This document shows, one piece after another, positions 6,741 to 17,038 of a stretch of DNA of 51,257 nt; position 1 is the first letter of the stretch, and the number at the start of each line of letters is the position of its first letter. The translations under genes and the position numbers were made by a program. The notes beneath the pieces were generated by a model that was not told the DNA's origin, ran no database searches, and worked only from the letters and a program-made list of their open reading frames with translations. This stretch comes from Armatimonadetes bacterium UBA5419 (GTDB taxonomy: Bacteria; Armatimonadota; UBA10988): assembly GCA_002409445.1 (NCBI GenBank), contig DHNJ01000268.1:1039-52295 (forward strand). Direction: 5' to 3'.

Positions 6741-8273
6741 ATGTCGCTGCCCCGCCATAGCATCCTAGGAGTGTTGTTGATGACCGGACTGAGCCTCTTG
6801 ATCACCTCTGGCGCCGCGATGGCCCAGCCCGAGACCGTTACGTGGGAGCCCGTGACCTGGCAGAAGCTGCCCCGCTGGCGCGGCTTCAACCTGCTAGAGA
6901 AGTTCCAGCAGCCGTGGTCGGGCCGCTTCCGCGAGGACGACTTCCGCATGATCCACGAGCTGGGTTTCAACTTCGTGCGGCTGCCGATGGACTACCGCTG
7001 CTGGATCGTCGATGGCGACTGGGAGCAGATCAACGAGGACGTGCTGGCGGAGATCGACGAGGCGCTGGTCTTCGGCGAGAAGTACGGCATCCACGTGATG
7101 ATGAACTTCCACCGCGCGCCGGGCTACACGGTCGCCACGCCGGCTGAAGCCAAGAGCCTCTGGACCGACGCCGACGCGCAGCGCGTCTGCCGCATGCACT
7201 GGCAGACCTTCGCCCGGCGCTACCGCGACGTGCCGGCCGAGCGGCTCAGCTTCAACCTGTTCAACGAGCCCGCCGGCGTCGATCCTGAGACCTACATCGA
7301 GGTCTGCCGGCCGATCGTCGAGGCCATCCGCGCCGAGAACCCCGACCGCGTGATCGTCAGCGACGGGCTCGGCTGGGGCCGGGAGGTGACGCTCGGGCTG
7401 CTGGAGCTCCAGGTGGCGCAGGCAACGCGCGGCTACAGCCCGATGGGCGTCTCGCACTACCAGGCCTCCTGGGTTGGCGGTGCCGACGGCTGGCCGCTGC
7501 CGGTTTGGCCGCAGCCGCTGGCCAACGGCCTGCTGGTCAACCCAACCAAACCGGACATGCCGGCGGTCGCCTACCTGCCTCTGACCATCAGCGGCGACTT
7601 CACCGGCGCGCGGGCGTTGCGCTTCAAGGTCGGTGTCGTCTCGACCCAGGCGCACCTGGTCGTGCGGGCCGACGGCCGCGAGATCTGGGCTCGCGACTAC
7701 GTCAGCGGTCCGGGTGAAGGCGAGTGGGAAGAAGAGCGCTACGTCGAACGGTACGACGTCTACCAGAACCTCTGGAACACGACGCACGAAGTCGTGCTGC
7801 CGACCGGTGCGCGGGAGGTCGAAATCCAGTGCATGGCGGGCGACTGGATCCGCCTTAGTGAGTTGGCCGTCATCGCCGAGGATGGTACGGAGAGCGCGAT
7901 CGGCTTGAACGATGGCTGGGGCGGACAGCCGGCGGTGCTGGTCTATGAGGACGGCCAGATCCGCGCCGAGAAGTACAACGACCGGCAATGGCTCTGGCAG
8001 AACGAGATCATGCCCTGGCAGGCCTGGGAAGCGGCGGGCGGCGGTGTCATGGTCGGGGAGTTCGGCGCGCACAACCGCACCCCGCACGATGTGGTCCTGC
8101 GCTGGCTGGAGGACCTGCTGCAGAACTGGCAGGAGGCCGGCTGGGGCTGGGCGATGTGGAACTTCCGCGGCTCGTTCGGGCCGTGCGACAGCGGGCGTGA
8201 CGACGTGGAGTACGAGGACTACGAAGGCCTCAAGCTGGATCGCGCGATGCTCGACCTACTGCAGCGCTACTGA
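6741..8273 (+). CDS. Secreted glycoside hydrolase family 5 (cellulase-like) with a large internal insertion
   Basis: Signal peptide MSLPRHSILGVLLMTGLSLLITSGAAMA. GH5 hallmarks FNFVRLPMDY, acid/base NLFNEP, SHY, nucleophile VMVGEFGA. ATG 6741 is preferred over the track start 6690. Confidence 0.8.
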   Translation: MSLPRHSILGVLLMTGLSLLITSGAAMAQPETVTWEPVTWQKLPRWRGFNLLEKFQQPWSGRFREDDFRMIHELGFNFVRLPMDYRCWIVDGDWEQINEDVLAEIDEALVFGEKYGIHVMMNFHRAPGYTVATPAEAKSLWTDADAQRVCRMHWQTFARRYRDVPAERLSFNLFNEPAGVDPETYIEVCRPIVEAIRAENPDRVIVSDGLGWGREVTLGLLELQVAQATRGYSPMGVSHYQASWVGGADGWPLPVWPQPLANGLLVNPTKPDMPAVAYLPLTISGDFTGARALRFKVGVVSTQAHLVVRADGREIWARDYVSGPGEGEWEEERYVERYDVYQNLWNTTHEVVLPTGAREVEIQCMAGDWIRLSELAVIAEDGTESAIGLNDGWGGQPAVLVYEDGQIRAEKYNDRQWLWQNEIMPWQAWEAAGGGVMVGEFGAHNRTPHDVVLRWLEDLLQNWQEAGWGWAMWNFRGSFGPCDSGRDDVEYEDYEGLKLDRAMLDLLQRY

Positions 8274-8530
8274 CCTGGGCCAAACGGCATCACCTGGCGG
8301 TCGGCGTCGCTCGGCGGAATACGTCGCGCGTCGGTCAGCGGCCAGTGACGCAGGAAGCCGAAGCCGACCAGGCTGATCACGATCCAAGCCTGCAGCAGGA
8401 GCACCGACCAGCGCTGGGTCTCGGTCGACCCGGCGAGCGACCCCGTCGCCAGCCACAGGCCGAGGGCCAGCGCGGGCAGGTACGGCACGAAGTCCAGGGC
8501 GGTCCTGGTGTGTCGAAACTGTTGTCTCAT
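8267..8530 (-). CDS. Small two-TM membrane protein, unknown function (last gene of the coupled operon)
   Basis: 87 aa with two hydrophobic helices (FVPYLPALALGLWLATGSLAG; LLLQAWIVISLVGFGFL). Its ATG overlaps the upstream TGA (ATGA at 8527-8530). Confidence 0.5.
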   Translation of the reverse strand: MRQQFRHTRTALDFVPYLPALALGLWLATGSLAGSTETQRWSVLLLQAWIVISLVGFGFLRHWPLTDARRIPPSDADRQVMPFGPGQ

Positions 8531-8877
8531 TGGTGCGGCTCCCCAAACCCGCGCCGCCGGGCCGATCGTTCGTCAGCATCGATCAGGTCGTCGCGGGCTT
8601 TGATCTTGCGCAGCATGATGCTCGCGCCCATGGCGAACAGCACACCGACGGCCGCGCCGATGACCAGAAACGGCAGACTGCCCATCAACCCGCCACAGAA
8701 CGCGGCGCCAAAGATCAGCATCCCCATGCTGACCATGAACGCCGATAGACAGCTGGTCCGCATCTGGCGGCGGCTGTTGAGCTGCCAGGAGGCCTCGCCG
8801 CAGCGCGGGCAGTACTGAGCCGAGGTCTCCATTTCCGAACCACATTGTGCGCACGTGGATCGATGGGCCAAACTCAC
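8527..8877 (-). CDS. Zinc-ribbon plus two-TM membrane protein
   Basis: GTG at 8877 is preceded by TAAGGAGG (revcomp of 8881-8890) and overlaps the lgt-like TGA (GTGA). N-terminal CAQCGSEMETSAQYCPRCG is a CxxC..CxxC zinc ribbon, followed by two TM helices. The long N-terminal extension of track ORF 8527..9405 is rejected. Confidence 0.6.
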   Translation of the reverse strand: MSLAHRSTCAQCGSEMETSAQYCPRCGEASWQLNSRRQMRTSCLSAFMVSMGMLIFGAAFCGGLMGSLPFLVIGAAVGVLFAMGASIMLRKIKARDDLIDADERSARRRGFGEPHQ

Positions 8878-9563
8878 CGTGGCCTCCTTACCCACCACAA
8901 CGATAGCACGCCCAGGGTTGCTATGGCTACTGCCCCCATTTGACCCAACTCCAAACTTCCGCCACCATCGTGCGCTCGGTGCCTCTCGATCAGCCAGCGG
9001 CCGACGCCAAAGAGAACCAGGAACAGCCGGAACAGGTCGCCCTCGCGCGGCAGGCGGCCGCGCGATCGCCAGAGCACCAGCCACGTCAGCGCCGCCCAGG
9101 CCGCCGCGTAGAGCTGCGTCGGGTGCCGCCAGGCGCCGTGCTGCCAGATGGCCCACGGCAGCGCGCACTCCGCGCCGTAGCAGCAGCCGGCCAGCAGGCA
9201 GCCGAAGCGCCCGACCGCCTCGCCGGCGGGCAGCGCCAGGGCCCACAGGTCGCCGGTCGGCCGGGTGATGCCCAGGTGGCGCTTGGTCGCCCAGACCGCC
9301 AGCCAGCCGCCGAGTATGCCCGTGATGATGGTCCGACCGCCCAGCCGCGGGTCGAACAGGCTCAGCGGGCTGGCGCTCCACAGCGCCGGGTCGACGAGCA
9401 GCCAATGGCCCAGCTTGGCCGCCAGCAGCCCGCCGGCGAACCCCGCCGCCGCGACCAGGCCCATGCCGCGCGTCGCCAAGCCGCGACGGCGCGCCTCGTA
9501 GACCAGAACCAACCCGCCCGTGGCGTAGCCCAGATACGTCACTAATGCCGCCCAGTAGATCAC
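8874..9563 (-). CDS. lgt: Prolipoprotein diacylglyceryl transferase (Lgt) family membrane protein, Cys-rich variant
   Basis: Polytopic membrane protein with Lgt-like blocks: FDPRLGGRTIITGILGG, GEAVGRFGCLLAGCCYG, HPTQLY, FLVLFGVGRWLIE. The proposed GTG at 9563 overlaps the radical SAM stop (GTGA). The track start 9647 would overlap that gene by 88 nt. Confidence 0.65.
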   Translation of the reverse strand: MIYWAALVTYLGYATGGLVLVYEARRRGLATRGMGLVAAAGFAGGLLAAKLGHWLLVDPALWSASPLSLFDPRLGGRTIITGILGGWLAVWATKRHLGITRPTGDLWALALPAGEAVGRFGCLLAGCCYGAECALPWAIWQHGAWRHPTQLYAAAWAALTWLVLWRSRGRLPREGDLFRLFLVLFGVGRWLIERHRAHDGGGSLELGQMGAVAIATLGVLSLWWVRRPR

Positions 9564-10987
9564 AGCGGTGCGTCGCCGAACAGCCAGTGCCAGCAGAATG
9601 AGTGGCGTCGCGTGTCCGCCTCGAAAGTCGCGGTATGCGTGCAGCACTGGCGCAGCCGCTCCTCGCGCACGGTCGAGGCGTCCTGGAACTGCTTGATCGT
9701 CAGACGGAAGGCACGCTGGGCGACGGTCGCGAGGACGGTCGGCTCGCGTCGGCCGCGACAGCAGAGCCCCCGCAGCAAGCCCGCCAGCGCCGGCAGCTCG
9801 CCCAGGACGCGGCGCAGGGCGTGCTCCGCCGGCGCGTCGCCGGTGCGCAGCGCGGTCAGCACGGGCGCGCTCAACTCCTCGAAGGTGATCGTGTTACCGA
9901 TCAGCGGCAGCCAGCGCCGTAGCTGTACCCGGCCGATCAACCTGATCACCGACCGCCACGCGTCCTCGGCGTCGCGCACGAAGTAGGCCAGGTCGCAGCA
10001 GTCGGGGTGGCTGCAGGGCAACGGGATGAAGTCATCGACGCTCAGCAGCTCCGGCGCTTGATCGGCGAGGCGCCGCACGACACCAGTCGGCGTCAGGCGG
10101 GCCGTCGGCTCGACCAGGTCGCCCCGCCCCGAGCCGAACACCGGTTGAACCGCCCACCCGGCGACATGCGGCACGCCGAGCCCGTAGCGCAGGATGTCGC
10201 CCAACTGGTGGTCGTTAACGCCCAGGGCCGCCGTCGTGACCAACGTCATCGCCAGCCCGGCGGCGTCGAGGCGCTCGACTACGGCTTGTTTCGTCGCCGT
10301 CAGGTCCTCGGCGCGCAGGCCGCGGTGCGCCTCTGGCCCGAAGCCATCGAACTGCAGGTAGATCTCCAGGTGCGCGCGGTGGGCCGCCAGGCGCGCCAGG
10401 AGCCGGTCATCGGTGGCCAAGCGCAGCCCATTGGTGTTGAGCAGCAGCCGCGTGATCGGCAGCTCGGCCAGGCGGTCGACCAGCTCGGCGAGATCCGGCC
10501 GCAAGGTCGGCTCGCCGCCGGAGAGCATCGCGACGTCCAGCTGCCCACCCTCGCGTGCGGTGACCTGTCGTACCGTGCGCAGGATATCCGGCAGTGGTAC
10601 GTCGATTCCGGTGGTGGCTGGTCCGGCGGTCGCGAAGCAGGTCGGGCAGGTCAGCTGGCAGCGGCCGGTGACGTTGAGGACAAGCGTGCAGGTGTGCTGG
10701 CCGTGGTCCTCGGGCAGGCCTTGGGCGTAGACCGGCAGCTGCGTCGCGAACAGACCGGGCCGGTCGGCCAGCGTTGATCGCGGCGGCACGGACCAGCCTC
10801 GCCGCGCGTGCCACAGTTCGGCGTCCTGCTCGTACAGCGTCGTCACCGTGCCGTGGTCTGGGCAGTCGCGCTGCAGCCAGATGGCGCCCTCGTCTTCGGC
10901 CAGGCGCGCGGGCAGGAAGCGCGGCGGACGCGGCTGCGCGGCATGGCAGGCCGGGCAGATCGCGCGAGTCCGCTCGACGACGGTCAT
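9560..10987 (-). CDS. Radical SAM enzyme with N-terminal rubredoxin/Zn-ribbon-like module and Cys-rich C-terminal domain (COG1964 / Tes-GDGT-MAS-like family by motif pattern)
   Basis: N-terminus ICPACHA...RDCPDHG. Radical SAM CX3CX2C motif NVTGRCQLTCPTCFA. SAM-binding-like MLSGGEPTL. C-terminal Cys clusters PLPCSHPDCCDLAYF and RQCCTHT...SFCWHW. Confidence 0.8.
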   Translation of the reverse strand: MTVVERTRAICPACHAAQPRPPRFLPARLAEDEGAIWLQRDCPDHGTVTTLYEQDAELWHARRGWSVPPRSTLADRPGLFATQLPVYAQGLPEDHGQHTCTLVLNVTGRCQLTCPTCFATAGPATTGIDVPLPDILRTVRQVTAREGGQLDVAMLSGGEPTLRPDLAELVDRLAELPITRLLLNTNGLRLATDDRLLARLAAHRAHLEIYLQFDGFGPEAHRGLRAEDLTATKQAVVERLDAAGLAMTLVTTAALGVNDHQLGDILRYGLGVPHVAGWAVQPVFGSGRGDLVEPTARLTPTGVVRRLADQAPELLSVDDFIPLPCSHPDCCDLAYFVRDAEDAWRSVIRLIGRVQLRRWLPLIGNTITFEELSAPVLTALRTGDAPAEHALRRVLGELPALAGLLRGLCCRGRREPTVLATVAQRAFRLTIKQFQDASTVREERLRQCCTHTATFEADTRRHSFCWHWLFGDAPL

Positions 10988-10996
10988 GGTCCGAGC

Positions 10997-11449
10997 CTAG
11001 GCGGCGGGCGGGCGGCGGGTCAGTCGGCAGCAGTCCCCACCCTTGCCGCGCAGGCACGAGTACAGCTTGCCCCCGGGACAGCCGAAGAAGCAGGACCAGG
11101 TCTTGAGCAGCGTCATGATCCAGAGGATGCGCCAAGCCAGTGCGGCATGGCCGCTCGCTAGGAGGAGCAGCGCCACGCCGATGACCACCGCGGCGAGTGT
11201 GTGCGAGAAGCGGATCGAGCCGACGTCCAGCGGCTCGTAGGGAGAGATGCGCCGCGGGTGGATGTAGTGGGTGTAGAGCACGACCAGCGGCGCGCCGCCC
11301 ACGCCGGTGATCGCGTTGACCACCATCAGCACCCAGACCAGGACGATCGGCGAGGTCCAGCCCGAGAGCACCCCGAGCCACATCAGCCCAGCGGTCACGT
11401 AGCGGCAGAAGCGGAAGCTGTCGCGGGGTACTCGGACCGTCTCACTCAT
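10997..11449 (-). CDS. Polytopic membrane protein with Cys-rich C-terminal tail (DUF4395-like)
   Basis: Start MSETVRVPRD (ATG 11449) overlaps the upstream stop by 8 nt (ATGAGTGA). About four hydrophobic helices. Tail WSCFFGCPGGKLYSCLRGKGGDCC. The DUF4395 assignment is from memory of the family pattern. Confidence 0.55.
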   Translation of the reverse strand: MSETVRVPRDSFRFCRYVTAGLMWLGVLSGWTSPIVLVWVLMVVNAITGVGGAPLVVLYTHYIHPRRISPYEPLDVGSIRFSHTLAAVVIGVALLLLASGHAALAWRILWIMTLLKTWSCFFGCPGGKLYSCLRGKGGDCCRLTRRPPAA

Positions 11450-12059
11450 CGCTCTCTCCACCCGCCAGCCGCGGCCAGAACATGCCCACGCGCGCCTGAT
11501 AGCGGGCATACTCGGGGAACCGCGCGCCGAGCATCTCTTCTTCCAGTGTAGCGCGCCAGCGCATCGCCGGCTGGAAAACGCCAAGCATCAACGCCAGTGC
11601 CAACGGGTTCGCGTGAATGAGGCTGGCGCCAACGCCGAACCAGAGCAGTGAGGCGTACAGCGGATGGCGGACCAGGCGATAGACGCCGCTGGTGACCAGC
11701 GTCTGCTCGACGTACAACGTGGCCTCGTTGGCCCAATTATGGCCCAGGCTGATGCGCCCCAGGAGGTTGACCGCTGTTCCGAGCATCACTAGCGCCAGGC
11801 CCGTGGTCACCAGCACGCTGTCGAGCAGGTCGCCCGGCGGCGGCAGCGCGCCATAGCGGGTCTTGAGGACGAGAGTCAGCACGCCGAAGAAGGCCAGCAT
11901 TGACGCCGTGGCCACCGGTGAGCGCCGCTGGGTGTCGCCGGTGCGCGAGCCGGGCGCGCGGGCGAAGTTGTAAGCCACGGCGCCGACCAGTAGCGCCGCG
12001 CAGACGACGATCACCTGGGCGGCTAGCGCGTGCCGGCTTTGGTAGTCCAGGACCAGCAC
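11442..12059 (-). CDS. Isoprenylcysteine carboxyl methyltransferase (ICMT) / phospholipid methyltransferase family membrane methyltransferase
   Basis: GTG start at 12059 with GGGAGG five nt upstream. Family motif LVTSGVYRLVRHPLYASLLW and C-terminal EEEMLGARFPEYARYQARV. Multiple TM helices. Confidence 0.75.
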   Translation of the reverse strand: MLVLDYQSRHALAAQVIVVCAALLVGAVAYNFARAPGSRTGDTQRRSPVATASMLAFFGVLTLVLKTRYGALPPPGDLLDSVLVTTGLALVMLGTAVNLLGRISLGHNWANEATLYVEQTLVTSGVYRLVRHPLYASLLWFGVGASLIHANPLALALMLGVFQPAMRWRATLEEEMLGARFPEYARYQARVGMFWPRLAGGESDE

Positions 12060-12074: not shown

Positions 12075-13169
12075 CTAGATCACCTCGAGGTCGTCGCGGC
12101 TGCCCAAGGTCGGGAACGCCGCGTGCGGCTCGCGTTGGTACCAGTAGGCGACGCTGGCGATGTCGTCCTGCAGCGGCAGGTAGCGCCCCTCCGAACGCCA
12201 GCCGATGGCCTGCATGGTCACCCGCATCGACTCGGCGAAGCGCACCGGGTCCATGACGTGGAAGCGGTACAAGCCGTGCCGGTTGCCGACCTTGAAGTCG
12301 GGCTGGCCGAACGGGTAGCCGAGGAACGGCGCACTGAAGTTCTCGCCGAAGCCCCAGGCCCCACCGAAGTAGTCCTCGGTGCCCGTCCCGCAGATGGTCG
12401 GGAACTCGTCGTCGCCGTCGAGGAAGAACTTGATCTCGCCCTCACCCCACCAGCCCGCGACGTTCTGCTGCCAGGCCATGTAGACGCCGACGAACTGGCC
12501 CTGCCCGCGCACGCCGTCGAGGATGATGAAGTCCTCGCCGTAGGCCAGCGGGTTGGCGCGGCGGAACTGGGCGTGGAAGTAGCCCTCGTCCTCGGGCACC
12601 TCGGTCAGCGCGTAGTTGATGGTGTAGAAGAACCCACCCTGGGCGTCCGGGGCGCGGTTCTCGATCGTCACCCGCGCGTGGCCGCGGAAGGGCATCGGGA
12701 AGTAGCAGTTCATGCCGCCAGACGGGTTCACGTTGATCGGCAGGCTGAGCACCTTGGCCCGTTTGGCGAAGCCGCAGCAGAAGAAGTCGCCCAGCGGCGC
12801 CTCGACACTGGGCTCGCTCTCGTTGTCCCAGTAGACGCGCAGGATCAGGTCGCGGTAGCGCCGCTCGTCGACGGTGATCCAGATGTGTTGGATCACGCCC
12901 GGACCGTCGACATCCATCAACGTCGTGACGCTGCCGGCGGGCAGGGTGATGCACGGCCGGACCTTCCAGCCGCGGCCCAGGTCACGCGCGGCGGCGTTCG
13001 GACCGTCCCACTGCTGGCCCAGGCGCGCGACTTCCGCCTGCGACTCCTCGCTGAGCTCGGCCATGCCGCCGCGGCCCGGCTCGCCATAGACGTTCTCGGC
13101 GGTGATCGAGCGCGTCTTGGCGTCGCTCAGGCGGCTGATGGAACCCAGGTTCTGGGCGAAGTAGGCCAT
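12075..13169 (-). CDS. DUF2961 / glycoside hydrolase family 172 protein
   Basis: ATG 13169 is preceded by AAGGAG. Characteristic blocks ITAENVYGEPGRGG, GPGVIQHIWIT, LGDFFCCGF, GMNCYFPMPF, WWGEGEIKFFLDGD, CGTGTEDYFGGAWGF, YRFHV. The track N-terminal 85 aa extension is rejected. Confidence 0.8.
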   Translation of the reverse strand: MAYFAQNLGSISRLSDAKTRSITAENVYGEPGRGGMAELSEESQAEVARLGQQWDGPNAAARDLGRGWKVRPCITLPAGSVTTLMDVDGPGVIQHIWITVDERRYRDLILRVYWDNESEPSVEAPLGDFFCCGFAKRAKVLSLPINVNPSGGMNCYFPMPFRGHARVTIENRAPDAQGGFFYTINYALTEVPEDEGYFHAQFRRANPLAYGEDFIILDGVRGQGQFVGVYMAWQQNVAGWWGEGEIKFFLDGDDEFPTICGTGTEDYFGGAWGFGENFSAPFLGYPFGQPDFKVGNRHGLYRFHVMDPVRFAESMRVTMQAIGWRSEGRYLPLQDDIASVAYWYQREPHAAFPTLGSRDDLEVI

Positions 13170-13209
13170 GGTTGCACTCCTTGGTTGGCCCCGGGCTCGG
13201 CGCCGGGGC

Positions 13210-14607
13210 TCAGAGATCGATAACGTCACCGTAGGCCGGCGCGCTCGTCTGCCAGCCCATGCGCTCGGCGACCAGTCCGGCGAAGCGCGCGGCCACGTCA
13301 GCGTCGCCGTGGGTGAAGAAGGCGCGCTGCGGCGGCTGCTGCAGGGCACCGAGCCACTCGAGCATGCCCGGCTGGTCCGCGTGGCCGCTGAGGCTGTTGA
13401 TCTTCTCAATCTTGGCGCGCACACGATGTATCCGGTTGAACAGCCGAACCTCCTCGGCGCCCTCCACCAGCTGCCGGCCGAGCGTGCCCTGGGCCTGGAA
13501 GCCGGTGATTAGGATCGTGCTCTCCGGCCGTGACAGGTTCTGCTCAAGGTGGTGCTTGATGCGCCCGGCGGTCGCCATGCCGGAGGCGGAGATGATGATC
13601 GCCGTGCCCTTGATGCGGTTGATCGCCTTGGACTGCTCGCGGGTCTCGGTGAACTGCACATCGCAGTAGCCGAAGATGTCCACGCCGCGCTCATACAGGC
13701 GGCGTGCCTCGTCGTCGTAGCAGTCGGGGTGCGCGCCAGAGATGCGCGTCGCGCGGATGGCCATCGGGCTGTCGACGAAGGTCATCAGACAAGGGATCTG
13801 GTGCGTGGCGCGCAGTTCGCGCAGGTGGTACAGCATGGTCTGCGTCCGGCCGACGGCGAAGGCCGGCACGACCAGGTTGCCGCCGCGGCGGATAGTGTCG
13901 AGGATGACCTCGCGCAGGCGCACCGGCGTCATGTCGCTCGGCTCGTGGACGCGGTCGCCGTAGGTCGACTCGCAGACCATGAAGTCGGCCTGGTCGAACG
14001 GCTGCGGGTCGCGGAGGATGACGCGGTCTTTGTTGCCGATATCGCCGGAGAAGACGATCGAGCGCGTCCGGCCGTCCTCCTCCCACTCGATCTTGACGTG
14101 CGCGGAGCCGAGGATGTGGCCCGCGTCCTTCCAGGTCGTGTAGACCCCATCGAGGATCTCGGTTCGCTGGTCGTAGCGCACCGCGACAAAACCTCGCAAA
14201 GCCTCCTCGGCCTCGGCGATTGTGTAGAGCGGCTCGGTCGGCGCCAAGGCGCGGCCTTCGCGGCGGTGGCGCTTGGTCTTCCAGCGCGCATCCTCCTCCT
14301 GGATGTGCGCCGAGTCCAACAGCATCAGTTCGGACAGGTCGACGGTGGCCTCGTGGGTGATGACTCGGCCGCTGAAGCCGCGCTTGACCAGCAGCGGCAG
14401 CCGGCCAGTGTGGTCGATATGACAGTGCGTCAGCAGCACGCAGTCGATCTCGGCGGGGTCGAAGGGGAATGGGTCCCAGTTCAGGCCGAGGAATGGCCGC
14501 TCCTGGAACAGCCCACAGTCGATGAGGATCTTGCGTTCACGGATCTCAAGCAGGTAACAAGATCCGGTCACGGACCCGGCGCCACCGCAGAAGGTCAACT
14601 GAGCCAC
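13210..14607 (-). CDS. MBL-fold beta-CASP hydrolase (RNA-metabolising metallo-beta-lactamase family)
   Basis: GTG start with GGAG six nt upstream. N-terminus FCGGAGSVTGSCYLLE, HxHxDH motif LLTHCHIDHTGRLP, and a beta-CASP/RNA-specificity type C-terminus (LSGHADQ..., FFTHGD). Confidence 0.8.
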   Translation of the reverse strand: MAQLTFCGGAGSVTGSCYLLEIRERKILIDCGLFQERPFLGLNWDPFPFDPAEIDCVLLTHCHIDHTGRLPLLVKRGFSGRVITHEATVDLSELMLLDSAHIQEEDARWKTKRHRREGRALAPTEPLYTIAEAEEALRGFVAVRYDQRTEILDGVYTTWKDAGHILGSAHVKIEWEEDGRTRSIVFSGDIGNKDRVILRDPQPFDQADFMVCESTYGDRVHEPSDMTPVRLREVILDTIRRGGNLVVPAFAVGRTQTMLYHLRELRATHQIPCLMTFVDSPMAIRATRISGAHPDCYDDEARRLYERGVDIFGYCDVQFTETREQSKAINRIKGTAIIISASGMATAGRIKHHLEQNLSRPESTILITGFQAQGTLGRQLVEGAEEVRLFNRIHRVRAKIEKINSLSGHADQPGMLEWLGALQQPPQRAFFTHGDADVAARFAGLVAERMGWQTSAPAYGDVIDL

Positions 14608-14649: not shown

Positions 14650-15684
14650 CTAGGACAGCCCGGCGCGCAACAGGTCCTGGACGTCCACGATGCCCAGCGC
14701 GCGGCCGAACCCGTCGACCACGCACAGGTTGTCCAGCTCGCGGCTCTGCATCATCGACAAGGCCTCGGTCGCCAGGCGGTCCGGCGTGATCGTCGTCGGC
14801 TCGCGGCCCATGACCGAGGCGACCGGCTCGGACAGCACCGCCCCGCCCCGCTGCTCCAAGTTCACGCGCAAGTCGCCGTCGGTGAAGACCCCGACCAGCA
14901 TGCCGTCCTCATCGACGACGTTGGCCACCCCACGCACCGGCGCATGGGTCATGACCAGCAGCGCTTCCTGCACGGTCTGGTAGGCCCGGACAACCGCCTG
15001 GTCGCCACCGGTGCGCATCACGTCGCGCACCGTTAGCAGCAGCTGCCGACCAAGGCTGCCGCCCGGGTGCAGCAGGGCGTAGTCGGCGGTGCTGAACTTA
15101 CGCGCCTCCATCAAGACCATGGCCAGCGCGTCACCCAGTGCGAGCATTACCGTGGTGCTCGAGGTTGGCGCGAGGTTGTGGGGGCAGGCCTCACGCTCGA
15201 CAGCCATGTTCAGCACGACATGCGCGTGCTCGGCCAAGGTCGAGCTGGGTCGGCCCGTGACGGCGATGATCTTCGACCCGAGGCGGACCAACGATGGCAG
15301 CAGCGCGACCAGCTCGTCGCTCTCGCCACGGTGACTAAAGGCCAAGACGACCTCGTCGCGGCCGACCATGCCCAGGTCGCCGTGGACGCCCTCCGCCGCC
15401 GAGACGTAGACGGCGGGGGTGCCGGTGCTCGACAGCGTGGCCGCGGTCTTGTGTGCGATGTGGCCCGATTTGCCGACACCGGTGACGACCACGCGCTTCT
15501 CGGGGCGCTCCAGGATCAGCCGCACCGCCCGCCCGAGCGCTACGTAATCAAGCTTCTGCGTCGCCTCGGCCAAGGCGGTAGTCTCGGCGACCAGCGTCTC
15601 GACCGCGACGTTGACCCATTCCGCGGGCACGCCGGCGGCAATCGCCGCTTGCAGCATGCTCGACGCACCGTGTCCGTCCGTCAT
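14650..15684 (-). CDS. kdsD: Arabinose-5-phosphate isomerase (KdsD/KpsF; SIS domain plus CBS pair)
   Basis: SIS motif [27 protein letters not shown]. The C-terminus is a tandem CBS pair. ATG 15684 overlaps the kdsA TGA (ATGA). Confidence 0.85.
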
Positions 15685-16499
15685 TCGGCCACCACCTTTC
15701 GTAGCGCCTGGACTGTCGCCAGAAGCGCGGGCAGATCCTCGAGTCGAAGCTGGTTCGGGCCGTCGCACAACGCCTCGTTGGGACAGTCATGGACCTCGAG
15801 GAATAGGCCATCTATACCCACCGCAGCGGCCGCCCGTACCAGCGGCGGCACGAACCGCCGGTCGCCACCGCTGGCGGTGCCAGCCGCGCCGGGCAGCTGC
15901 ACGCTGTGCGTGCCGTCGAAGACGACGGGCACGCCGAAGCTGCGCATGATCACGAGGCCGCGGAAATCAACGACCAGATTGTGGTAGCCGAAGCTGCTGC
16001 CCCGCTCCATCAGCGCCACACCGGCCGCACCCGACTGCTGCACCTTGTCGATCACCGCGCGCATGTCCTCGGGCGCCGAGAACTGCGCCTTCTTGACCGT
16101 CACCGGCCGGCCAGTCTCCGCCGCGGCGACCAGCAGGTCGGTCTGCCGCGAGAGGAAGGCGGGGATCTGCAGGACGTCGACCACCTCCGCGACCGGCGCG
16201 CACTGGGCCGGCTCGTGGACGTCTGTGGTCACGGCGAGGCCTAGCTCATCGCGAACGCGCGCGAGAATGCGGAGGCCCTCGGCCTGGCCCGGCCCGCGGT
16301 ACGCGCCGAGCGAGGTCCGGTTGGCCTTGTCGAAGCTGGACTTGTAGACGAACGGTATGCCGGCATTAGCCGCGACGATCGCCAGTCGCTCGGCCATGGC
16401 CAGCGCGTGCGCCTCGCTCTCGATCACGCACGGCCCGGCCAGCAGCACCAGTTCGGGCCCGCCCAGGACTATGCCGTCGCGGATCACCATCGGCTTCAT
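15681..16499 (-). CDS. kdsA: 3-deoxy-8-phosphooctulonate (KDO-8-P) synthase
   Basis: [33 protein letters not shown]..., [42 protein letters not shown] 16499 is preceded by GAGGAG. Confidence 0.9.
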
Positions 16500-16519
16500 T
16501 AGGTCTCTCTCCTCGGACC

Positions 16520-17038
16520 CTAGCGCAGCGCGAACGGGTCGTCGATGCGCAACGAATCGACCTTCGCGCGCTGCTCCTCGGTGAGCGCCTCCCAGACCTT
16601 GGCCCAATGCTTGCTGCGTGCCTTCATCAGCCGCTCGTTGACCGCGCGGCTAGCCTCGTCGCGGCGCTCGACCTCGGCCGGGTCGACCTGCTCGGCGTTG
16701 CCTTCCAAGTAGGCGATGAAGTCGGCGGACGCCGTCTCCATCGCGGCGCGGTCGTCCTTGGTCTCCGCCTCAAAGGCCGTCTGCGCCGCTTGCACGGTCT
16801 TGCGCTGCGCCTCGCTCAGACCGATCTTCGCCGCGCGGGCCAGCGCCCAGGCCGGCTCCGGGTTCTCGCTCAGGGCCTCCAGCGGCGCCTCGGCCAGGCC
16901 TTCGGGGACGGCTGGTGCTTGGGGCTCCGGCGCGACCGCGGCGGAACTGACCGGCGGCGGTGCGGGCGGCACGGGTTCCGGCTGCCCGCAACCGAACAAC
17001 GCCAAGCTCAGGAGCAGGCCCCACATTAGCCGTCGCAT
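16520..17038 (-). CDS. Periplasmic lipoprotein with LTXXQ motifs (Spy/CpxP-like)
   Basis: Leader [18 protein letters not shown] has a lipobox. Two LTXXQ-type motifs are present (LSEAQRK, LTEEQRA). The ATG shares one base with the MFS gene stop (TGATG at 17036-17040). Only the last 172 aa of track ORF 16520..18457 are used. Confidence 0.6.

Follow-up and report, generated by a model that had tools for sequence, protein, structure and literature searches.

GDGT-MAS (M. jannaschii MJ0619; Protein Data Bank 7TOL and 7TOM), one of the radical S-adenosylmethionine (SAM) enzymes of the Tes family, makes macrocyclic archaeol. Its metal sites comprise a rubredoxin site (C9/C12/C33/H36), an N-terminal auxiliary [4Fe-4S] cluster bound by C73/C77/C80 and a His, and a C-terminal cluster with a labile ligand, Met439; both Met439 and Tyr459 are fully conserved across 1000 archaeal homologues (PMC9433317). 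A curated relative, TrsS (NCBIfam NF045646), is a radical SAM (seleno)protein of unknown function. Here we analyze a Tes-like radical SAM gene in a 51,257-nucleotide stretch (the window) of contig DHNJ01000268.1 (positions 1,039 to 52,295) of Armatimonadetes bacterium UBA5419, an Armatimonadota metagenome-assembled genome of 3.38 Mb in 323 contigs that is ∼80% complete. We place the enzyme in a family of its own, without a name so far, that is coupled to a paralog of Lgt, the diacylglyceryl transferase of lipoproteins; we call this paralog LgtL.

9560–10987, minus strand: Tes-like radical SAM enzyme (P0001), 475 aa, with a zinc-ribbon/rubredoxin module, a radical SAM core, and a C-terminal cluster/lipid domain.

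The enzyme belongs to the Tes/TrsS superfamily but is neither Tes nor TrsS

The open reading frame (ORF) is intact, with an ATG at 10987 and a TGA at 9562–9560. The original prediction, made from the letters of the DNA, had read the product as a relative of Tes/GDGT-MAS from an N-terminal CPxC...CPDHG module, a CX3CX2C core, and two C-terminal Cys clusters. All of these were found. The module (C11-P-A-C14 ... C42-P-D-H45-G) matched PF23545, Zn_ribbon_HMPTM, at 42 bits against a cut-off of 27, and the core (C110-QLT-C114-PT-C117) matched PF04055, Radical_SAM, at 62.2 bits against a cut-off of 29.5. The C-terminal motifs read C325-SHPD-C330-C331 and C448-C449-...-C465, and their Cys are conserved across the family in the 126-sequence alignment described below, so they are not there by chance.

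The best match by sequence among solved structures was GDGT-MAS (7TOL, E 3e-37). In a pairwise BLASTP the two proteins shared 26% identity over their full length with an E value of 1e-46, weaker than the E<1e-50 used as the criterion for calling bacterial Tes homologues (PMC8941075). An AlphaFold2 model built from 60 family sequences (predicted local distance difference test score, 89.2; predicted template-modelling score, 0.90) was compared with known structures in Foldseek. It matched 7TOM/7TOL with a template-modelling score of 0.79 over ∼506 columns (E 1e-33 against 7TOM), whereas other radical SAM structures (MoaA, SkfB, viperin, SuiB) gave 0.3–0.4, with a maximum of 0.40. Thus, the whole architecture is Tes-like, including the C-terminal domain, and the enzyme belongs to the Tes/TrsS superfamily (COG1964, Zn_ribbon_HMPTM).

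Neither curated family includes it, however. The Tes model (NF045702) gave 187 bits against a cut-off of 450 and aligned to residues 7–328 only. TrsS was the best-scoring curated model, with 239.9 bits against a cut-off of 490. Of the window protein's 150 best cluster representatives scanned, not one came up to the Tes cut-off. We then placed the enzyme in a maximum-likelihood tree of 81 sequences (quick IQ-TREE search, LG+C20, supports from the Shimodaira-Hasegawa-like approximate likelihood-ratio test), for which Tes sequences were gathered using a fragment of MJ0619 as query. The 13 archaeal Tes formed one clade (support 100) and the 14 TrsS another (99), and these two joined each other (100). 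The window enzyme fell in a separate clade of 35 rows (98), in which an Lgt paralog adjoins the radical SAM gene in every row except L080, and several well-supported branches lie between it and the Tes plus TrsS clade.

Tes orthology is therefore ruled out by the score cut-off, the tree, and the ligand pattern given below, and TrsS membership by the score cut-off and the tree; TrsS loci also lack the Lgt paralog. The predicted resemblance to Tes/GDGT-MAS holds at the level of the superfamily (fold, rubredoxin site, radical SAM motif, C-terminal Cys) and fails at the level of orthology (scores, tree, ligands). Phylogeny did not move the enzyme to another characterized radical SAM subfamily: it grouped only with an uncharacterized one.

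Most of the family lacks the N-terminal cluster Cys and has probably changed the C-terminal cluster

We compared the metal ligands in an L-INS-i alignment of 126 sequences: 93 members of the window family, 13 Tes, 14 TrsS, and 6 other relatives. The corresponding sites of the window enzyme are as follows.

10829–10978, minus strand: rubredoxin-like Fe/Zn site, residues 4–53; C11/C14/C42/H45 correspond to MJ0619 C9/C12/C33/H36.
10694–10741, minus strand: remnant of the N-terminal auxiliary [4Fe-4S] site, residues 83–98, QLPVYAQGLPEDHGQH; the Cys are replaced by P85/Q89/P92 and H95 is kept.
10688–10690, minus strand: C100, ten residues before the radical SAM motif; Cys in 93/93 family members, 14/14 TrsS, and the 6 other relatives, and I/V/L in Tes.
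10637–10660, minus strand: radical SAM motif C110-x3-C114-x2-C117, corresponding to MJ0619 C98/C102/C105; invariant in all groups.
9995–10015, minus strand: C325-SHPD-C330-C331; C330 corresponds to MJ0619 C338.
9593–9694, minus strand: C-terminal cluster segment, residues 432–465; K432 lies at the Met439 position, C448/C465 at C455/C470, and T452 at Tyr459.

The rubredoxin-site residues are invariant in Tes and TrsS and invariant or nearly so in the window family. The N-terminal auxiliary cluster behaved differently: C73/C77/C80 are invariant in the 13 Tes, the 14 TrsS, and the 6 other relatives but are Cys in only 14–17 of the 93 family members. Its loss is thus a feature of most of the family (∼76–79/93).

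At the C-terminal cluster, C338/C455/C470 are invariant in Tes and TrsS, and their counterparts C330, C448, and C465 are kept in 80–85 of the 93 family members (C330 in 85). The labile ligand is not: the Met439 position is Met in Tes (13/13) and TrsS but Lys in 78/93 of the family. Tyr459 is Tyr in 13/13 Tes, Val in 12/14 TrsS, and V/I/T in the family. Two further Cys set the family apart from Tes. C325 is present in 93/93 members, 8/14 TrsS, and 6/6 other relatives and is replaced by S/F/V in Tes, and C449 is present in 92/93 members and absent from Tes. The window enzyme carries all four family markers, namely C100, C325, C449, and Lys at the Met439 position.

Of the auxiliary-cluster Cys pattern expected for a Tes-like enzyme, the N-terminal part is therefore absent and the C-terminal part present. 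We infer from the alignment that the window enzyme would bind two [4Fe-4S] clusters, not three, in addition to the mononuclear site, and that a different residue (C325, C449, or possibly the Lys) has probably become the C-terminal cluster's fourth ligand.

With Tes (MJ0619, MA_1486) the window enzyme thus shares the full-length fold, the rubredoxin-type C-X2-C...C-X2-H site, the CX3CX2C motif, and three Cys of the C-terminal domain, and it is ∼30 residues shorter in the helical lipid-pocket region. With TrsS it shares C100, in part C325 and C449, and a C-terminal domain shorter than that of Tes; TrsS differs in having the N-terminal cluster Cys and Met439 and in forming its own clade next to Tes.

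The radical SAM gene is coupled to an Lgt paralog across phyla

8874–9563, minus strand: LgtL, Lgt paralog, 229 aa (PF01790, 109 bits); its GTG start overlaps the stop of the radical SAM gene (GTGA).

We wondered whether the radical SAM gene keeps this neighbor elsewhere. A scan of one genome per species yielded 80 homologous loci spread over about ten phyla: Actinomycetota (Mycobacterium, Mycolicibacterium, Nocardia, Nonomuraea, Arthrobacter, Microbacterium, Janibacter), Chloroflexota, Vulcanimicrobiota, Abditibacteriota, Bacteroidota, Planctomycetota, Bacillota, Rhodothermota, and Myxococcota. Brevibacillus, Pedobacter, and Aquimarina are also among the host genera. An Lgt paralog was adjacent and on the same strand in 73/80 loci, and most exceptions were contig ends. 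In Armatimonadota it adjoins the radical SAM gene in every homologous locus with enough flank. The mycobacterial adjacency was seen in L049, L050, and L055, from relatives of Mycolicibacterium smegmatis mc2 155. All-against-all clustering of the ORFs within 5 kb of the 80 loci revealed no other widely conserved neighbor, only the radical SAM gene and LgtL; the third cluster consisted of ORFs antisense to the radical SAM gene. Two cluster representatives, P0141 (671 aa) and P0143 (733 aa), are natural fusions of LGT, Zn_ribbon_HMPTM, and Radical_SAM domains.

By contrast, none of 10 loci of true TrsS (>490 bits), from a Clostridia-type phylum, had an Lgt-like gene within 6 kb, whereas a relative from the same phylum that is not TrsS (L144) did have one. 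It is thus the window's side of the tree that the coupling characterizes, not the superfamily at large. The family also differs from Tes in its hosts, which are bacterial and mostly aerobic, and may differ in its Lgt partner, for which Tes loci were not searched. Literature searches for TrsS, for DUF4395, for MSMEG_5408 and its neighbors, and for diacylglyceryl transferase with radical SAM found no paper that links the Lgt paralog to a Tes-like enzyme.

Other members of the superfamily showed further arrangements. In four cluster representatives (P0209, P0237, P0250, P0268) a Zn_ribbon_HMPTM radical SAM protein is fused to a MobA-like nucleotidyltransferase, HD, or class I methyltransferase domain, so the superfamily has non-Lgt, perhaps non-lipid, contexts. 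One TrsS gene (G497:C8:34053-35348) and one Armatimonadota relative (G074:C132:3004-4251, L033) contain one in-frame TGA each, consistent with the selenoprotein forms of TrsS. A Clostridia-type genome encodes two tandem Tes/TrsS-like paralogs that score under the TrsS cut-off (G449:C39:277034-279795, L143) and a third copy ∼35 kb away.

LgtL is a divergent second Lgt

LgtL falls below the lgt equivalog cut-offs despite its PF01790 match, and the window genome encodes a canonical Lgt elsewhere (C305; 187 bits versus 109 for LgtL). We aligned 74 paralogs with Escherichia coli Lgt and this canonical Lgt (E. coli numbering is used for Lgt residues). The paralogs retain G142, R143, G154, R239, E243, and R246, but N146 is changed to Cys in 73/74. 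The Y26 position is mostly His in the paralogs and Ala in window LgtL. H103 is aliphatic in the family consensus, and window LgtL has I-T at H103-G104 (TIITGIL versus MSFHGGL). E151 varies among the paralogs and is Cys in window LgtL, whose catalytic loop reads GRFGCLLAGCCYG. Compared with E. coli Lgt (PDB 5AZB), LgtL therefore belongs to the same PF01790 fold family and keeps R143, G154, R239, E243, and R246 but lacks Y26, H103, N146, and E151; at 229 aa it is short and lacks head and arm regions, and the genome carries it in addition to the canonical enzyme.

The N146C change is shared with MSMEG_5408 of M. smegmatis. It has been reported for that protein and for "distantly related Lgt-s", with low Lgt activity presumed (bioRxiv 10.1101/2025.03.27.645668), and another preprint suggested a different lipid preference for the paralog. 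The papers found regard the paralog as an Lgt of weak or redundant function, and a radical SAM neighbor goes unmentioned in both preprints.

Small membrane proteins and accessory genes surround the pair

In the window, the pair is part of a run of six packed minus-strand genes. The other four are as follows.

8267–8530, minus strand: membrane protein of 87 aa that lacks Cys; overlaps the gene before it (ATGA); no Pfam match.
8527–8877, minus strand: zinc-ribbon protein with two transmembrane segments (TM1 and TM2), 116 aa, with a Cys in or after TM1 (GAAFC60GG) and weak zinc-ribbon Pfam matches; candidate substrate or partner.
10997–11449, minus strand: DUF4395 membrane protein, ∼150 aa (PF14340, 48.8 bits); N-terminal motif SFRFCRY; C-terminal tail rich in Cys.
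11442–12059, minus strand: ICMT/PEMT-family membrane methyltransferase, 205 aa (PF04140 and PF04191; NF040696 at 62 bits, under the cut-off).

The DUF4395 gene ends 9 nt before the radical SAM start. GTGA or ATGA overlaps join the last four genes of the operon (radical SAM, LgtL, zinc-ribbon protein, 87-aa protein), which are translationally coupled; the zinc-ribbon gene has a GTGA overlap with LgtL and an AGGAGG upstream. The "lipid-enzyme operon" of the original prediction is thus borne out, with ICMT/PEMT-like and Lgt-like genes among the six. The form of the operon with ICMT, DUF4395, and zinc-ribbon proteins is specific to the window. Farther upstream on the same strand (12075–13424, 13210–14607, and 14650–16607, all minus) lie genes for a DUF2961 protein (314 bits), which stops just 15 nt ahead of the ICMT start, a beta-CASP metallo-beta-lactamase nuclease, and kdsD-kdsA (Kdo synthesis).

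Small membrane proteins also recur beside the pair in other genomes. We scored same-strand small ORFs with a transmembrane segment and a Cys that follows G/A/S and lies 4–20 residues from the C-terminus. Such Cys-tail ORFs occurred in 39/75 loci, at 0.33 per kb beside the pair versus 0.005 per kb-strand more than 1.5 kb away, a ∼66-fold enrichment whose size is to be read with care because the criterion was set after seeing examples and is partly post hoc. The Armatimonadota counterparts are zinc-ribbon and transmembrane proteins encoded after LgtL, and in most of them TM1 ends in a G-[GAS]-C motif similar to a signal-peptide lipobox. The small proteins are very diverse and were not detectable at every locus.

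A second recurring small membrane protein (84–122 aa) adjoins the pair in Chloroflexota, Vulcanimicrobiota, Abditibacteriota, and Armatimonadota (L062:9515-9883, L078:9521-9847, L088:9475-9738, L045:9787-10041, L025:89-439, L003:8788-9111) and has the conserved Cys motifs AFTFCK and TR(S/x)(R/K)C. The N-terminal AFTFCK motif is like the SFRFCRY start of DUF4395, so this protein may be a short DUF4395 relative. By eye, the 87-aa protein of the window may be a degenerate copy of it (ALDFVPY ... TQRW).

DUF4395 also adjoins the radical SAM gene at L001, L012–L014, L035, L108, and L111, and both ICMT and DUF4395 stand beside the pair in the window's family, at L035, in two Bacteroidota, and in one archaeal metagenome-assembled genome. 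The pair-carrying genomes of Fimbriimonas, Brevibacillus, and Aquimarina lack DUF4395, however. ICMT and DUF4395 are therefore accessory, lineage-specific additions, and a place for them among the core parts of the module is ruled out. The window ICMT-like protein is weakly similar to MddA. Lineage-specific genes between LgtL and the radical SAM gene in Arthrobacter, Chloroflexia, and Mycolicibacterium had no Pfam matches. In a Fimbriimonadaceae metagenome-assembled genome (L004:4831-5991), a gene with ThiF and rhodanese domains (MoeZ-like, sulfur carrier activating) ends 10 nt before the radical SAM start and could hint at sulfur chemistry.

Discussion

To the family placement, cluster-ligand pattern, fold, gene coupling, fusions, and distribution observed here we add a proposal, namely that the radical SAM enzyme and its specialized N146C Lgt paralog form an obligate pair, joined in most lineages by small Cys-bearing membrane proteins. 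Beyond these observations, we infer which substrate is used, which bond is formed, and what the small proteins do. As judged from its sequence, the window enzyme most likely works like a Tes-type lipid-tail radical enzyme and not as a bulk synthase of brGDGTs, the branched glycerol dialkyl glycerol tetraethers. A separate family that stands next to, and is sometimes fused to, an Lgt variant probably serves lipid-anchor remodelling and not the making of tetraether membrane lipids. Our leading reading, to which we give about an even chance, is a radical modification of the acyl tails of the diacylglyceryl group that the Lgt paralog would transfer to, or hold at, a thiol; the neighboring micro-protein is the most plausible bearer of this thiol.

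Such lipid-anchor remodelling might proceed as follows. The enzyme has retained the GDGT-MAS architecture in full, with a rubredoxin-like site, a radical SAM cluster, and a C-terminal cluster domain next to the lipid pocket. The surface N-terminal [4Fe-4S] cluster would have been lost, and the ligands of the C-terminal cluster rebuilt with Lys for the labile Met and two extra invariant Cys. The Lgt paralog would take a diacylglyceryl group from a phospholipid and put it on, or hold it at, a thiol, most likely the lipobox-like Cys of the adjoining zinc-ribbon/transmembrane micro-protein. The radical SAM enzyme would then abstract hydrogen from an acyl tail of the bound lipid, and a new C-C or C-S bond would be made via the C-terminal cluster, in the way that Tes acts on phytanyl tails. 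The ICMT-like methyltransferase and DUF4395 of the window operon may add or assist a further step.

Several points weigh against this reading. The tree comes from a quick search without an outgroup, and acidobacterial Tes homologues were omitted from it. C338/C455/C470 are assigned as ligands of the GDGT-MAS C-terminal cluster from their invariance, and C325 and C449 are placed at that cluster by prediction. The Cys-tail enrichment carries its partly post hoc criterion. The window's own small proteins fit poorly: the Cys of the zinc-ribbon protein lies 56 residues from its end and follows a Phe (GAAFC60GG), and the 87-aa protein has no Cys. Finally, many pair-bearing genomes lack ICMT and DUF4395, which are therefore not core.

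A bolder version, which we think has perhaps one chance in five, is that the pair, together with its micro-protein, yields a new class of lipid-anchored proteins. LgtL would put diacylglyceryl on the Cys of a tiny membrane protein, and the Tes-like enzyme would couple the acyl tails either with one another, closing a macrocycle, or with a second lipid, so that a membrane-spanning lipid tethered to a protein results. If so, about ten bacterial phyla would make the product, with mycobacteria among the producers, and ICMT-type carboxyl methylation would finish it in some lineages, reminiscent of eukaryotic CaaX processing.

The enzyme could instead be a true bacterial tetraether or membrane-spanning lipid synthase that joins the tails of two bulk glycerolipids (precursors of diabolic acid or brGDGTs), the Lgt paralog only feeding or positioning phosphatidylglycerol. 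The Tes-like fold with its C-terminal domain, the retained C-terminal cluster Cys, and the lipid-enzyme neighbors would fit this, and the original prediction had held the gene to be a good test case for branched membrane-spanning lipids. Bacterial homologues of Tes have been put forward for brGDGT synthesis (PMC8941075), and Armatimonadota appear as possible producers of overly branched GDGTs in a co-occurrence study, as that study is cited in PMC11868695. Mss, the membrane-spanning lipid synthase of the bacteria Thermotoga and Thermoanaerobacter, is likewise a radical SAM enzyme, with a proposed role in the coupling of lipid tails, but it is only remotely related to Tes and is found in anaerobes (PMC13159169); we set it against the window enzyme by description only. 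The expectation of a good test case did not hold up, however: the enzyme misses the Tes cut-off, lies outside the Tes clade, lacks the N-terminal cluster Cys, has the Tes-invariant Met439 and Tyr459 replaced, and comes from a family with aerobic hosts. Members of the family are frequent in the aerobic genera Mycobacterium, Nocardia, Arthrobacter, Microbacterium, Brevibacillus, Pedobacter, and Aquimarina. We know of no membrane-spanning lipids from these aerobic genera of Actinomycetota, Bacillota, and Bacteroidota. Closer bacterial Tes homologues are moreover absent from the screened diabolic-acid and iso-diabolic-acid producers and occur in just 3/14 iso-diabolic-acid-producing acidobacteria (PMC13159169). 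A synthase of this kind would also leave unexplained the obligate Lgt paralog with its altered catalytic loop and the Cys-bearing micro-proteins. Thus, the phylogeny, the missing Tes residues, the aerobic heterotroph hosts, and the published screening data weaken this explanation, and we regard it as unlikely.

Equally unlikely, in our estimate, is a protein or peptide maturase that acts on the polypeptide of the adjoining small Cys membrane proteins, for example by making a thioether or a cross-link, with the Lgt paralog lipidating that Cys at an earlier or later step. Peptide maturases are numerous among multi-cluster radical SAM enzymes, the surroundings of the pair are enriched in small membrane proteins with a Cys, and SkfB, SuiB, and anSME were among the weaker fold matches. 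However, Pfam searches found no SPASM/twitch match and no RRE domain, and the C-terminal domain is Tes-like, not SPASM-like. The small proteins are also very diverse and patchily detected, and the lipid transferase homologue alone is universally conserved as a partner.

Sulfur insertion, in which a sacrificial C-terminal cluster would give sulfur to a lipid carbon and the ICMT-family enzyme would methylate the product, strikes us as more doubtful still. Sacrificial clusters are known from LipA, BioB, and MiaB, and the ICMT family includes the thiol S-methyltransferase MddA. Here, the labile Met is replaced by Lys, another non-Cys residue, in 78/93 family members, and the ICMT-like neighbor is weakly MddA-like; Tes itself forms a C-S bond between its substrate and the C-terminal cluster (PMC9433317). 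The argument is purely analogical, however, ICMT is no core partner, and the pair of additional invariant Cys speaks for a cluster with all its ligands, not an open one. To our knowledge, no sulfur-lipid product has come from the host taxa, which also counts against such chemistry. Very improbable, finally, is a non-lipid cofactor role or other chemistry on a soluble metabolite, for even though some sources still call homologues by the old MJ0619 name 7,8-dihydro-6-hydroxymethylpterin dimethyltransferase and the fusions to MobA-like, HD, and methyltransferase domains mean that the superfamily extends beyond lipids, Lloyd et al. (PMC9433317) failed to reproduce a pterin activity in MJ0619 and all conserved partners of the family are integral membrane proteins.

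An Lgt-coupled family outside Tes bears on how Tes-like genes are read. Bacterial "Tes homologues" are counted in genomes and metagenomes as markers of producers of brGDGTs or membrane-spanning lipids. The large and widespread branch of the superfamily described here differs from Tes in its cluster complement, its obligate Lgt-paralog partner, and its hosts, which are not known as tetraether producers; loose homology searches would therefore yield false positives in the source attribution of palaeoclimate proxies. The finding also gives the unexplained second Lgt found in mycobacteria (MSMEG_5408 type) a concrete setting and points toward a modification of lipids or lipoproteins, so far undescribed, that is testable in ordinary laboratory strains.

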